A stretch of 64,000 nt of DNA from an uncultured SAR86 cluster bacterium (GCA_902541175.1 CACBPP010000002.1:14581-78580); one strand, 5' to 3'. Counted from the stretch's first letter, positions 58,602 to 62,540 are shown. A program made the numbers and translations. The notes: generated from the sequence alone by a model not told the origin.

Positions 58602-58648
58602 AATGGTGGAGCTACGCGGGATCGAACCGCGGACCTCTTGAATGCCAT
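58602..58648 (-). repeat. att site: duplicated 3' half of tRNA-Ala(GGC)
   Basis: Identical to 62463-62509; covers CCA, T arm and the whole anticodon loop, no D arm. Confidence 0.92.
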
Positions 58649-58749
58649 AAGCCTGCTCTCTTCATATTGAAAATACATTGAAAGCTTTAAACCTAGTCAA
58701 AACCACATTTTAATTATAAACAATTGCGAGAGTTGTTAAACATTGCAGA

Positions 58750-58772
58750 TTTTGGTCACCATATGGTCACCA
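58750..58772 (+). repeat. TTTTGGTCACCATATGGTCACCA site, left copy
   Basis: Exact match to 62414-62436; internal TGGTCACCA tandem with 11-bp period. Confidence 0.85.
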
Positions 58773-58967
58773 AGAATCATCATTGATTGTAACTAGTTTA
58801 TGTAAAAGATATTTTTAAAGTGATTTGATTCATCAATCACAATAATCCAGTATGAAAAAAATTCACTTTTACGTAACAAAAAATTTCAGAAAGTTTCCAT
58901 ACTTTCATACAAAAGGAACATGATTGAAGTTCAATAGACGTGCACAAATTAACATTTTTGGATAATT

Positions 58968-59390
58968 ATGAAACATTACATTTTATTTTTTCTAATGATT
59001 TTCTCTTCATTTAGTTATTCACATGAAATAAAGACTGTAATTGTTGAATTAAATGGTATGGACTTTGTAAACGATGATCTAACCTACGGTAATCAAATTC
59101 TTTGGATTCCTGAAATTGATGAGGAGGTTGTTGCATCTGGAAGTGTACAAGGCTTTTTAGCCAGATATAAAAAAGGTGATCTTCCTGACCCTGAAAAAGG
59201 TTTTGATTCAACAGAACAAAGATGGAGCCATTTACCAAATTTAAGTTTGTATTTTGATGAGCCAGCTTTCATATATTTAAGTCATGGCAATGGATATGTG
59301 AGACTTTCCTATCAATCACAAATTAGTATACAAGAAATGATGGATTACACCTCTGGTAGAAAGTTAAAAATAGTTATTCACAAAAACTAA
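58968..59390 (+). CDS. secreted hypothetical protein (islet cargo)
   Basis: Signal peptide MKHYILFFLMIFSSFSYS; no recognised family. Confidence 0.7.
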   Translation: MKHYILFFLMIFSSFSYSHEIKTVIVELNGMDFVNDDLTYGNQILWIPEIDEEVVASGSVQGFLARYKKGDLPDPEKGFDSTEQRWSHLPNLSLYFDEPAFIYLSHGNGYVRLSYQSQISIQEMMDYTSGRKLKIVIHKN

Positions 59391-59437
59391 TATTAAGCTA
59401 AAAACGTTTAAAAAATTTTAACTAATCAAAAATTATG

Positions 59438-60784
59438 TCAATAATTTATCTTCTTGGCATCAAACTTGTCTCTGAAATTTTTAATACGATTCCAGTCACC
59501 ATTAATAACAATTGTTTTACCTTCATCTTGAATGTTTAGATACATATTATTACCATCAGATGAAAAACAAATGCCAGCAATTTCTGAGCTACTATTACCA
59601 GCAACTCTTCCGAGTGGATAAAGCATACCATTTTGAGTACAACCAATTAATCTGCATGCATTGCTATCATTATCCTCACAGATAATGAGATCACCCCACG
59701 GTGTGACATTAATATTATCTCCTTCCCATAAGTCTTTTGTATCAGTTGATTCATAAAATAATGTGATTTTAGATTTACTTGGAGCATACGACCAAATTTG
59801 ACCCAGGCCTGCTTGACCGCCGTCTTTACAAGTAAAATAAATAACACTTTCTGAGTTAGCATCATTTGTAAAAATTATTCCTTCTCCACCACAAAAGATA
59901 GTTGCACCTTTTGATTTACCCTGAGTTTTTGTTCTTTTTTTCGAAGCACTTGGATCATCAATTAGGACCCAATCAACTGGAAAAGAATCGCCTGATTTTA
60001 TAGAACCATCTTTGTTCTCAGTGCTTTCTAAGTTCTTAATTCTAAGAGCTTCGAGAACACCTTCTCCGTCTAACTTATCTTTGATAGATGGTGTAAATTT
60101 ATAAAACAAGCCCATGGGATCGTCTTCTGTTTGATATATAGTGCCTTTTTTATCATTAATATCTACCGTGATAGCTTCTCTTTTAAATCTGCCCATTTCT
60201 GATAATCTTTTGAAACCATCTAAGGATTTTGTCTTTGGATTAATCTCAAACGCATAACCATGATCTCTATCGTAGGTTTCTTCACATGAAATCCAAGTAT
60301 TCCATGGTGTTTTTCCCCCAGCACAGTTCTTTTTTGTTCCTGTAAGACTTCTTCTTGAATCAATTACTTTTTTACCACTAGAGTCTAATATTAAGGTAGT
60401 AGTTCCACCATCATAAGGAATACCGAAACGTTTATCATATGCAGATATGGGATCAAGCCTCTTATCTAAATTATCTGTTTCATGATTTATTATAAGAGCA
60501 TTATTTCCATCATCTAACTTAAATGCTGCCATTCCATCGGGTCTTCTGCCATATGGAAGACCATCAGCCATAATATCTCCAGATGAAATTAGCACTTTGT
60601 ATGAGAAATTCATAGGTAAATCAAATAAACCAAGTGGGTCTGATAATAGAGAACCATCCCAAAAGTCATTAGTTGTACTTTTTAGGACAGAGCTCTTTAA
60701 AGGTCCAGTATAAGTATACAAAATAAATAAGGCAGAAGTCTTTGCAGTAAGTTTTAAAAACTCTCTTCTATTATTAATTGACAT
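59438..60784 (-). CDS. phoX: PhoX-family (DUF839) alkaline phosphatase, Tat-exported
   Basis: NRREFLK Tat motif; INHE, NCAGG.TPWNTWISCEE, GRFKRE, EDD, GEG, GDN, CED, SEIAG metal-ligand motifs. Confidence 0.85.
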   Translation of the reverse strand: MSINNRREFLKLTAKTSALFILYTYTGPLKSSVLKSTTNDFWDGSLLSDPLGLFDLPMNFSYKVLISSGDIMADGLPYGRRPDGMAAFKLDDGNNALIINHETDNLDKRLDPISAYDKRFGIPYDGGTTTLILDSSGKKVIDSRRSLTGTKKNCAGGKTPWNTWISCEETYDRDHGYAFEINPKTKSLDGFKRLSEMGRFKREAITVDINDKKGTIYQTEDDPMGLFYKFTPSIKDKLDGEGVLEALRIKNLESTENKDGSIKSGDSFPVDWVLIDDPSASKKRTKTQGKSKGATIFCGGEGIIFTNDANSESVIYFTCKDGGQAGLGQIWSYAPSKSKITLFYESTDTKDLWEGDNINVTPWGDLIICEDNDSNACRLIGCTQNGMLYPLGRVAGNSSSEIAGICFSSDGNNMYLNIQDEGKTIVINGDWNRIKNFRDKFDAKKINY

Positions 60785-60974
60785 TTATGTATATTAATAA
60801 CTTTTTAGATTTTTTAAATATATCTTTTTATATTTCACATAATTGTCTCATTTATGAAACTTTTTGATTGAAATATAATAACCAAACCTATACATGATTG
60901 TTGCATTTATTTAACAATGATAAGTTAAATTAATTTTTTAAAATTGTTTAGCTTAAAACTAAAATTAAATAGTA

Positions 60975-61688
60975 GTGATAATGAAAGACGAGGTTACAAT
61001 CGTTGTCCCGTGTAAAAATGAAGAGTCCTATATCTATTATTTGCTTGATAGTTTAAAGAAGCAAAAAGGCATGGAAGGCATAAGAATACTTATCGCAGAT
61101 TGCTCAACTGATAATACAAGAAGAGTTATTGAAAATCATAAAGAATGGTTGAATGTTAAAATTATTAAAGGTGGACCTGTTTCAGTCGCCAGAAATAACG
61201 GATCATATTTAGCAATCACGCCATATATTCTTTTCATAGACGCTGATGTTAGATTTTTTTCAAATACAGTAATCTACGATACTTTAAAACAAATGAAAGA
61301 GGAGGATTTACATTTAATGGGACTAAATATTAAATGTTATGACAAAGATCCAAGGGCTCAATTAAGTTTTTCAATATTTAATGTATTAAATAAAATAATG
61401 TCAAAGTGGATTCCTTTTGCTGTAGGAGCATATTTTCTAACTCGTAAAGATAGGTTTTATGAACATGGTAAATTTCCATGTAAGTATCCTACATCAGAGG
61501 ATTTTCACTTATCGAGGAAATATGATCCAAAGAAATTTAAAATTGCCAAACATTACTTTGGACAAGACAGCAGAAGGTTTAAAAAGATGGGATATTTAGG
61601 CATGTCCATTTATTTAATTAAAAATTTTTTATTTAAGGATAACCATAACTATTGGAATAACATAAATGAAAAACGATATTGGTCATAG
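60975..61688 (+). CDS. GT2 family glycosyltransferase
   Basis: IVVPCKNEE, ADCSTDNT, ARNNG, FIDAD (DxD), SED. Confidence 0.88.
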   Translation: MIMKDEVTIVVPCKNEESYIYYLLDSLKKQKGMEGIRILIADCSTDNTRRVIENHKEWLNVKIIKGGPVSVARNNGSYLAITPYILFIDADVRFFSNTVIYDTLKQMKEEDLHLMGLNIKCYDKDPRAQLSFSIFNVLNKIMSKWIPFAVGAYFLTRKDRFYEHGKFPCKYPTSEDFHLSRKYDPKKFKIAKHYFGQDSRRFKKMGYLGMSIYLIKNFLFKDNHNYWNNINEKRYWS

Positions 61689-62412
61689 AAGTGTATTCAT
61701 TTCAGATTTACATTTAGGTAGCAAACACTGCAAAGACAAAGAACTCTTAAAATTTCTTCAAGAAGTTAGAACAAAAAAGCTATATTTAGTCGGCGATATT
61801 ATTGATGGCTGGAGACTTAAGAAAAAATGGTATTGGCCAGATAATCATAATAGAATAATTAAACAACTTATTCGTATTTCAAAATATGCAGAAGTTTATT
61901 GGATTAGTGGTAATCATGACGAGTTCTTAAGAACAGTTCCAACGATTAACATTGGGAATATTGAAACACATAATAGAATGGTTCACGTGGGTGTTGATGA
62001 GAACAAATATCTCGTAGTACACGGAGATATGTTCGATTATTTGATGAGAACAAAATTTGGTAAAAGAATAATGTATATAGGTGATTGGGGTTACGATAGA
62101 TTAATTAATTTTAATTACCTATTAAATAAAGTGAGAGCATTCTTTGGTTATAAACCTTGGTCACTATCAAAATTCCTTAAAAGAAAAGCAAAGATAGCCA
62201 CAAATTTCATCGGTGAGTTTGAAACACAAATGATTAATTACGCCAGAATGAAAAAGTATGACGGAATTATATGTGGTCACATACATCATGCAGAAATTCG
62301 ACAACACGATGAAATTAAATATATGAATGATGGTGATTGGTGTGAAAGCTGTTCAGCGCTTATTGAAGATCATGAAGGTAACTGGTTCATAAAGTATTAT
62401 CAACCATTATAG
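61666..62412 (+). CDS. plcP: PlcP-like / LpxH-like metallophosphoesterase (phospholipase C)
   Basis: FISDLHLG, LVGDIIDGW, GNHDEFLR, HGDMFD, YKPWSLS, FIGEFE, CGHIHH, YMNDGDWCESCSALIE. Confidence 0.8.
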   Translation: MKNDIGHRSVFISDLHLGSKHCKDKELLKFLQEVRTKKLYLVGDIIDGWRLKKKWYWPDNHNRIIKQLIRISKYAEVYWISGNHDEFLRTVPTINIGNIETHNRMVHVGVDENKYLVVHGDMFDYLMRTKFGKRIMYIGDWGYDRLINFNYLLNKVRAFFGYKPWSLSKFLKRKAKIATNFIGEFETQMINYARMKKYDGIICGHIHHAEIRQHDEIKYMNDGDWCESCSALIEDHEGNWFIKYYQPL

Positions 62413-62413
62413 T

Positions 62414-62436
62414 TTTTGGTCACCATATGGTCACCA
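62414..62436 (+). repeat. TTTTGGTCACCATATGGTCACCA site, right copy
   Basis: Exact match to 58750-58772. Confidence 0.85.
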
Positions 62437-62464
62437 TGAAAATATAAGATTTATGTTTTAAAAA

Positions 62465-62540
62465 TGGTGGAGCTACGCGGGATCGAACCGCGGACCTCTT
62501 GAATGCCATTCAAGCGCTCTCCCAGCTGAGCTATAGCCCC
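62465..62540 (-). tRNA. tRNA-Ala(GGC)
   Basis: Reverse complement GGGGCTATAGCTCAGCTGGGAGAGCGCTTGAATGGCATTCAAGAGGTCCGCGGTTCGATCCCGCGTAGCTCCACCA; G3:U70. Confidence 0.97.

Follow-up and report, generated by a model that had tools for sequence, protein, structure and literature searches.

A phosphate-stress cassette without an integrase, bounded by tRNA-Ala(GGC) repeats, in a family of SAR86 elements with conserved non-coding ends

How genome-streamlined ocean bacteria, which have few classical mobile elements, exchange niche genes is a long-standing question. Among the systems described so far, tycheposons are usually 10-20 kb long and are marked by a hallmark integrase, often an excisionase, and a primase/helicase replication module (Hackl et al., bioRxiv 10.1101/2020.12.28.424599). 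The tRNA-Lys island of 'Ca. Methylopumilus' contains recurring 20-bp repeats of the tRNA 3' end (PMC10872708), and the cis-mobilizable elements (CIMEs) of Streptococcus are derived from, and mobilised with, an adjacent conjugative integrative and conjugative element (ICE) (ICEberg 2.0, PMC6323972). Here we analyse a stretch of 64,000 nucleotides from an uncultured SAR86 cluster bacterium (GCA_902541175.1, CACBPP010000002.1:14581-78580; hereafter the window, with positions counted from its first letter), in which four cargo genes are flanked by the intact tRNA-Ala(GGC) gene on one side and by a displaced copy of its 3' part on the other. We read this unit, with confidence slightly better than even, as a 3.86-kb non-autonomous integrative element that belongs to a family with attP-like arms and is moved in trans.

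The element shares with tycheposons a tRNA target, a flanking partial tRNA, nutrient-acquisition cargo and a streamlined ocean host, and in both systems several elements stack at one tRNA and islands hold extra partial tRNAs of older events. It differs in its size (3.9 kb) and its gammaproteobacterial host, and its cargo domains include neither integrase nor replication genes; moreover, tycheposon remnants are decayed, whereas the SAR86 elements form a coherent family with conserved non-coding arms. A first-pass annotation of the window had drawn the parallel to the tycheposons of Prochlorococcus, which holds for the tRNA site and the nutrient cargo, fails for the integrase, the replication genes and the host, and stands as an analogy only. 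The additive flexible genomic island of Methylopumilus likewise carries hypervariable cassettes at a tRNA 3' end, with unit-separating repeats and strain-variable content; in SAR86, by contrast, the repeat measures 45-47 bp and reaches the anticodon loop, the arm modules are defined, and one unit is near-identical across species. Taken as a whole, the SAR86 locus is an additive flexible genomic island of this type. With CIMEs, the element has in common the retention of attL and attR (here as perfect 47-bp repeats, with conserved arms), the absence of integration and transfer genes, a presumed dependence on a foreign integrase, and tandem accretion, as at locus L089 described below. What sets it apart is that no ICE, conjugation genes or parent element was found at the SAR86 loci, and to our knowledge SAR86 is not known to conjugate. 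In sum, the element behaves as an island that integrates at a tRNA, and most resembles a CIME or a cargo-only relative of tycheposons.

A repeat search of the window recovered the exact 47-bp direct repeats that the first-pass annotation had reported, at 58602-58648 and 62463-62509 and 3861 bp from start to start; the search aligned 50 nt with one mismatch (58599-58648 with 62460-62509), of which 47 bp are exact. This is the longest exact repeat in the window, two tRNA-Arg paralogues excepted, and a 45-mer within it occurs twice with 0 mismatches, against an expectation of 0 from 100 shuffles. The repeat consists of the 3' 45 nt of tRNA-Ala(GGC) (positions 32-76) plus 2 nt. On the tRNA strand, it opens with the first base of the anticodon loop (AUGGCAU), includes the encoded CCA end and stops 2 nt beyond it, so that identity between the copies does end at the edge of the loop, as had been claimed. 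The intact gene scores 62.4 bits against the Rfam tRNA model (gathering score 29), and the Rfam scan of the element returned only the tRNA and a sub-threshold tmRNA match on the fragment. In approximately 25 SAR86 loci tRNA-Ala(GGC) is 100% identical, and the base composition of the insert resembles that of its surroundings. The same arrangement between repeats is present in no fewer than 10 independent assemblies, made from single cells and metagenomes in different projects, and is therefore no assembly artefact. The features of the element are collected in Table 1.

Table 1. Features of the SAR86 element and its junctions, in window coordinates
Feature	Position	Strand	Evidence
Left junction (attL): displaced 3' fragment of tRNA-Ala(GGC), left repeat copy	58602..58648	-	sequence, repeat search
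Left non-coding arm (P'-like)	58649..58775	.	alignment of 7 elements
Left-arm block GCTCTC	58655-58660		
Left-arm block AAACCTAGTCAAAACCAC	58689-58706		
Left-arm block TATAAACAATT	58715-58725		
Left-arm heptamer pair TGGTCAC-CATA-TGGTCAC-CA	58753-58772		
Cargo 1: 140-aa protein with N-terminal signal peptide	58968..59390	+	ORF call
Cargo 2: PhoX-family alkaline phosphatase, 448 aa, Tat signal NRREFLK	59438..60784	-	PF05787
Divergent AT-rich region between PhoX and GT2-PlcP, presumed promoters	60785..60974	.	
Cargo 3: family-2 glycosyltransferase (GT2)	60975..61688	+	PF00535, 7.6e-18
Cargo 4: LpxH-like calcineurin-type metallophosphoesterase, read as PlcP-type phospholipase C	61666..62412	+	PF00149, 3.4e-12
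Right non-coding arm (P-like); second motif copy TGGTCACCATATGGTCACCA at 62417-62436, then 28 bp to tRNA 3' end	62413..62464	.	
Right junction (attR): intact tRNA-Ala(GGC)	62465..62540	-	ARAGORN; Rfam

The site is bordered on the left by a flavin-monooxygenase-like gene (FMO) and on the right by a cyclopropane-fatty-acid-synthase-like methyltransferase gene (CMAS), and a search with FMO yielded about 39 syntenic loci, mostly labelled SAR86 (Gammaproteobacteria). On the strength of this flanking-gene scan we discarded a SAR11 or cyanobacterial host, which the AT-rich sequence and the cargo had suggested. The empty attB that the first-pass annotation had proposed to look for in relatives is present in six SAR86 species, where the tRNA follows FMO by 12-139 bp (L007, L014, L016, L011, L009 and L022); at six more loci, the interval holds small native open reading frames (ORFs) only. 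Eleven others lack a tRNA fragment and have 1.8-8 kb of unrelated genes in the interval (for giant surface proteins, a lipopolysaccharide kinase, a histidine operon and others), while inserts bounded by a perfect 45-nt tRNA fragment occupy the site in four further species (L002, L004, L024 and L027). Sampling through CMAS homologues added one species with an empty site (L103-L112), one divergent lineage of the phosphate (P) cassette, and many contigs broken at the tRNA. The interval between FMO and tRNA-Ala is thus a hypervariable island. The observations by which the first-pass annotation could have been overturned did not materialise: relatives without the genes exist, empty sites exist, and the repeat is reproduced across assemblies. 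The locus thus combines a repeat of the tRNA 3' part starting at the anticodon loop, a regenerated tRNA and an unoccupied site in relatives; an integrase inside the element and beside the junction was absent from the four cargo genes, from the sister elements, and from about 10 kb around at least 10 loci.

That the unit moves as a whole is indicated by its near-identity across species. Segment-wise BLAST comparisons covered the unit from the left repeat and its arm through the cargo to the right arm and the tRNA, and gave 99-100% identity to the window throughout in genomes with diverged flanks (FMO 75-81%, CMAS 81-83%); the jump falls exactly at the tRNA repeats, which bears out the earlier claim of a single, non-autonomous transferable unit. 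At the left junction, the native sequence is divergent (about 78-82%, or unalignable) up to the base before TGGTGGAGC and 100% identical from there. An apparent start of identity 107 bp to the left of the tRNA fragment, which would have implied co-transfer of the flank, was rejected as over-extension of a BLAST high-scoring pair, this stretch being only 78-82% identical. The window-type cassette occupies the site in at least four backgrounds, namely the window's own species, the L004 species, L086 and L087, and L113 represents a diverged P-cassette lineage (roughly 90%) in another species, in which motif and arm have diverged together with the rest. Within one species, L087 and L024 (FMO 98.9% and right flank 98.5% identical over 6.3 kb) carry a P cassette and an Mrr-ResIII-helicase cassette, respectively, each with its own version of both arms, which means that the arms travel with the cargo. 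The L024 cassette (5637-8684) encodes one 1015-aa protein with Mrr-like nuclease, ResIII helicase and HA domains, and is probably a phage-defence gene. In other sister elements, the same ends enclose a gene for a lipoprotein (L002) or for a giant lipoprotein (L082), or no cargo (L027 and L081). Across 39 loci, the tRNA fragments are perfect or have one mismatch, and no decayed fragment was seen; at flank-like divergence about 9 differences per fragment would be expected, so that the insertions are either young or kept homogeneous with the tRNA.

All fragment-bounded inserts have non-coding ends in common, with a left arm of about 125 bp and a right arm of about 50 bp, each containing two TGGTCAC heptamers 11 bp apart. 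The left end runs from the fragment through 6 variable nt, GCTCTC, a variable stretch, AAACCTAGTCAAAGCCAC, 8 nt, TATAAAYMATT and a further variable stretch to TGGTCAC-N4-TGGTCAC; the signatures of the arm blocks are AAACCTAGYCAAARCCAC and TGGTCAC-N4-TGGTCAC. Pairwise identity across five lineages is 0.81-0.93 in the arm blocks and 0.39-0.46 in the spacers. Spacing is also kept, with 103-107 bp between core and left motif in all elements and 28 bp between right motif and tRNA 3' end in three of four lineages (32 bp in the remaining one). TGGTNACCA has no other occurrence in the window. The conserved ends would accordingly be attP arms, with heptamer pairs placed like arm-type integrase binding sites, and the pair resembles the arm consensus of phage lambda, which we treat as a lead only. 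Ten variants of the motif retain the two direct heptamers and not inverted-repeat symmetry, and on this ground the motif was rejected both as a 10-6-10 inverted-repeat core site and as a dif-like site; nor does it resemble the dif consensus. Being a direct heptamer repeat, it is by eye unlike the imperfect palindrome of attC-type sites, and no integrase that could make up an adjacent intI/attI pair, as beside integron cassettes, lies within 10 kb.

Several loci depart from the standard arrangement. L088 (11482-13714) and L092 hold a 5.5-kb version of the cassette in which PhoD (528 aa) and a 144-aa gene replace the 140-aa gene. The left arm of this version is cut short and contains no heptamer pair, and in L092 the fragment shows a single mismatch; the version may be an older or immobilised form. 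At L093 (reverse complement, 5830-5953), the right arm of the cassette is joined to tRNA-Ala(UGC), which has its 3' 32 nt in common with tRNA-Ala(GGC), with neither left fragment nor left arm and between different flanks (an Elm1-like gene and a TonB receptor), which implies that recombination here took place within the shared acceptor/T-arm and not at the anticodon loop. At L089 (reverse complement, 13028-13400), a locus of the L004 species, the P cassette's right repeat leads into a different, distantly related arm (…TAAAGCCAC…CACCATATG…) and then into genes for cadherin-like surface proteins. The tRNA 5' half is absent after this right repeat, the contig ends before the tRNA, and the 1.5 kb of the neighbouring unit covered by sequence contain no integrase or conjugation genes; at this locus, a further unit is stacked in tandem toward the tRNA.

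A cargo-less unit of about 160 bp, consisting of tRNA fragment, left arm, one heptamer pair, right arm and tRNA, is present at L081 (1-250) and L027 (12606-12881), and would be either a minimal element or a deletion product between two motif copies. The L027 locus (12606-14923) begins with a tRNA-Ala 3' fragment (1-45), a left arm with a single motif, a 32-bp right arm and a complete variant tRNA-Ala(GGC), and continues with a lipoprotein gene, a gene for an SOS-response-associated peptidase (SRAP) and, last, positions 36-76 (the 5' part) of the first tRNA type. The variant tRNA has 11 differences in its 3' half and equals the native allele in L028. It seems that a replacement tRNA travels with the L027 element. 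Between the split halves, the overlap is only 10 bp, TGAATGCCAT, which again points to the anticodon loop as the place of crossover, although the locus is complex and a single case.

Strand exchange by tyrosine integrases in the anticodon loop, at attP sites that carry a tRNA 3' half, is well established. Under the reading that we favour, the element would have entered by site-specific recombination of the tyrosine-integrase type, with strand exchange in the 7-nt anticodon loop, as its anatomy suggests; in every element, identity ends at this loop. It would have brought its own copy of the tRNA 3' half, the right repeat copy (the 3' 45 nt of the intact tRNA, inside 62463-62509), which would now complete the gene. 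In circular form, both arms and the core would join into an attP-like site of about 220 bp with one heptamer pair on each side, and in scale and layout this joined site fits a complex attP with arm-type integrase sites. The integrase would be supplied in trans, from a gene elsewhere in the host chromosome or from a phage or another element with this tRNA as its target. Since no recombinase was found in the family, the enzyme must act in trans, or the elements are no longer moved site-specifically. The first-pass annotation had offered both options, a trans-mobilised or a recently stranded element; its integrase-less state is confirmed, and our searches found no helper integrase and no attP circle junction.

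We found no recombinase domain in the four cargo genes (Pfam, NCBIfam), in agreement with the first-pass annotation, nor in the sister elements, among the genes within about 10 kb of at least 10 cassette loci (precomputed Pfam), or at the additional loci reached through CMAS homologues. Over 1.5 Mb, a phmmer --max search with XerD gave a best E of 0.41, a soft negative given a hand-entered query and no positive control, and a regular expression for HxxR...GH...T...Y gave 0 matches; a Pfam summary of 88 ORFs showed no recombinase among the top 25 families listed. An 18-nt arm block had three matches in viral contigs, all in coding DNA and attributable to chance. The proposed search for tRNA-Ala-targeting integrases likewise returned none, either within 10 kb at the SAR86 loci or by DNA or protein match in phage and viral collections, and the attP circle junction (62462, core, 58649) that had been predicted was absent from the metagenome and viral scans. 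The ends of two Aggregatibacter phage records, Aaphi23 (NC_004827, 1-45) and S1249 (NC_013597, 3-48), match the same 45-nt tRNA-Ala segment at 89%, so that this sublocation appears to serve as att core in unrelated phages. The block of identity has the same extent in these phages and in SAR86; the phages differ in having their own integrase beside attP, and show no similarity to the SAR86 element outside the tRNA segment. Integration sites are reportedly sorted into classes by sublocation within the tRNA, a scheme said to go back to Williams in 2002.

A number of points weigh against movement by a helper integrase. Viral contigs gave 0 matches to the 45-mer, a 22-mer core, the heptamer motif and the PhoX protein; BLAST of GenBank phages with the reconstructed attP gave generic tRNA-Ala matches only; and a metagenome scan with the arm pattern retrieved no attP circle junction, the three short contigs that it returned all being chromosomal junctions. 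Outside Pfam-annotated regions the recombinase negatives are soft, and coverage of the host genome is the window. Homologous cassette swaps within invariant tRNA sequences would give the same identity boundaries. The arm-site function is a reading of position and conservation, and the heptamer pair formally has the architecture of an OmpR/PhoB-type operator as well. Finally, L093 together with L088 and L092 implies that recombination other than clean att by att exchange also shapes the elements.

In our assessment it is unlikely, while deserving serious consideration, that the elements are stranded remnants, in which case an integrase-bearing ancestor would have inserted once or a few times and lost its integrase, and cassettes would now move only by RecA-type recombination after DNA uptake, anchored by the invariant tRNA and the 45-nt fragment, which alone would be alike enough between species for this, and lost through recombination between the 47-bp repeats. 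Such a history accords with the lack of a recombinase in about 50 SAR86 loci, with identity boundaries inside tRNA sequences, where homologous crossovers would also sit, with a tRNA 100% conserved between species that differ by 20% in their flanks, and with mosaic variants that have non-att breakpoints (deletion of the 140-aa gene, the PhoD version, and L093 at the shared 32-nt 3' end). It leaves unexplained, however, why arm blocks and their spacing are conserved amid near-randomised intervening DNA and why the arms have diverged along with the cargo. For RecA, homology of 45 nt on one side and 31-76 nt on the other is very short, both crossovers must fall within 76 bp for a cassette to enter a naive tRNA, and the stacking at L089 with a fresh fragment, like the undecayed fragments in general, fits repeated site-specific integration better. 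We also considered whether the 20-bp TGGTCAC-N4-TGGTCAC could itself be the recombination site, cargo being swapped between constant arms in the manner of an integron or Xer module with no linked integrase. The left arms of the window and L083 are about 95% alike and diverge right after the motif, the 160-bp unit of L027 and L081 is the product expected from recombination between two motifs, and in five independent metagenome contigs the sequence breaks off 2 nt from the right motif. This idea is nevertheless very doubtful: both arms change along with the cargo between L087 and L024, arms move between species with P cargo at 99-100% identity, and the 10 motif variants lack the inverted-repeat symmetry that a core site needs, with no recombinase nearby.

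An explanation compatible with movement in trans, and one to which we give a low probability, is that the ends are regulatory, the heptamer pair forming an OmpR/PhoB-type or other repressor operator and the upstream blocks (TAGTCA..N15..TATAAA) an outward promoter for the cargo. The pair does consist of 7-bp direct repeats with a 4-nt A/T-rich spacer in an 11-bp phase, and its heptamer matches 5 of 7 positions of the Pho-box heptamer of E. coli. The first cargo gene is oriented away from the left motif in the window as well as in L024 and L082, and the window's cargo is a phosphate-stress module. On the other hand, the same motif flanks a restriction/helicase gene, an opposite-strand lipoprotein gene and an empty unit, and its right copy follows the last gene and points into the tRNA; for these reasons a Pho box is unlikely to be the main role of the motif. 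The actual promoter region between PhoX and GT2-PlcP, moreover, lacks the motif, and a promoter scan gave no more hits than shuffled sequence. An assembly or amplification artefact or a chance repeat can be practically dismissed; the window does come from a single-cell-type assembly, in which chimeras can occur, yet 0 chance matches are expected and the architecture is reproduced in the independent single-cell and metagenome assemblies cited above.

Relative to the literature that we found, four aspects are new: a coherent family of elements that lack an integrase and have conserved arm modules, a phosphate unit that is almost the same in several SAR86 species, the defence cassette as an alternative occupant within one species, and the cargo-less minimal form. 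A complete phosphate-stress module is thereby seen as one 3.9-kb unit at a defined tRNA site that alternatively holds a defence gene. If the arms are indeed used in trans, SAR86 would have a minimal cassette system, and the helper would reveal a route of gene flow in a highly abundant marine heterotroph. A more far-reaching proposal, which we advance tentatively and hold to be possible rather than probable, is that SAR86 harbours a self-contained family of miniature elements (attP arms plus cargo, down to about 160 bp) that parasitise a recombinase to which they are not linked and serve as the main shuttle of cassettes at this tRNA hotspot; they would be an integrative counterpart of miniature inverted-repeat transposable elements and integron cassettes, bringing niche genes for phosphate stress, phage defence and surface proteins across species. 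Because the occupied and the empty junctions are known, they provide a metagenome marker that could link gene content with phosphate supply.

Four ORFs lie between the repeats, encoding a secreted 140-aa protein, PhoX, GT2 and a PlcP-like metallophosphoesterase. The 140-aa protein has no Pfam or NCBIfam family match, and its gene is deleted in two cassette variants and has PhoD in its place in another. The second gene qualifies as PhoX by a full-length PF05787 match (E=1.6e-58, profile positions 5-515 of 515) and a Tat signal in its N-terminus, MSINNRREFLK, and the exact window protein is recorded in 66 collection blocks. For GT2, a public gene call of 235 aa places the start, by back-calculation, at 60981, and every NCBIfam equivalog is far under its cut-off. 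The metallophosphoesterase scores 44.6 bits against LpxH equivalog models with a cut-off of 134, so that it is not LpxH itself and is read as PlcP-type; its gene overlaps that of GT2 by 23 nt, which makes the two an operon. Operons of PlcP with a glycosyltransferase serve P-sparing lipid remodelling, and PlcP homologues occur in SAR86 and are enriched in low-phosphate waters, according to the relevant passages of Sebastian et al. (PMC4796936). As in those operons, an LpxH-like metallophosphoesterase that is not LpxH here shares an operon with a glycosyltransferase; the difference is that a small GT2 stands upstream of the phosphoesterase instead of the characterised Agt, with activity and Pho regulation presumed from the genes. 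The passages concerned describe no mobile, tRNA-bounded context.

Together, the exported PhoX, the secreted protein and the GT2-PlcP operon probably constitute a phosphate-stress module, in which the operon would replace phospholipids with glycolipids. The combination of phosphorus scavenging and P-sparing lipid remodelling proposed by the first-pass annotation fits the domains and the operon context, and finds no counterpart in a convincing Pho box, so that it stands as a reading of gene content. In the promoter region between PhoX and GT2, no match with 6 or fewer mismatches to the E. coli consensus was found, which may not be that of SAR86, and no 11-bp-phased repeat passed the scan thresholds. 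A weak, 11-bp-phased Pho-box-like sequence below those thresholds, TTTCACATAATTGTCTCAT, is present at 60833-60852, and matches 11 of 18 positions of the E. coli consensus, from which the host's own may differ. A promoter and terminator scan gave hits no more numerous than in shuffled sequence. Phosphate control of the cargo is suggested by its gene content only.

Further observations concern the host locus and its other occupants. In the Mediterranean, a long-read study reported an insertion encoding an alkaline phosphatase at an allele frequency of 0.75 in a SAR86 metagenome-assembled genome (PMC12379486), which is not shown to be the same locus. Five metagenome contigs from five samples (L098-L102), all with the exact CMAS protein, end at window position 62439, 2 nt to the right of the right heptamer motif, and in another species many contigs (L106-L120) end inside or just past the tRNA; such systematic assembly breaks suggest population heterogeneity at the site. 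In the window's own species, L001 (11651-17149; 97% nucleotide identity up to 58508) has in place of the cassette a tandem-repeat surface protein gene of more than 1832 aa that reaches the contig end. L013, L015 and L023 contain a complete histidine-biosynthesis operon between FMO and tRNA-Ala, and in L082 (1-160) a hisC-like gene abuts the tRNA fragment and arm, followed by the giant lipoprotein gene. Between FMO and the tRNA fragment, the window encodes two tiny hydrophobic ORFs of 36 aa (58372-58482, + strand) and 26 aa (58500-58580, - strand), which belong to the native flank outside the element, since their homologues adjoin an uninterrupted tRNA in several SAR86 genomes.

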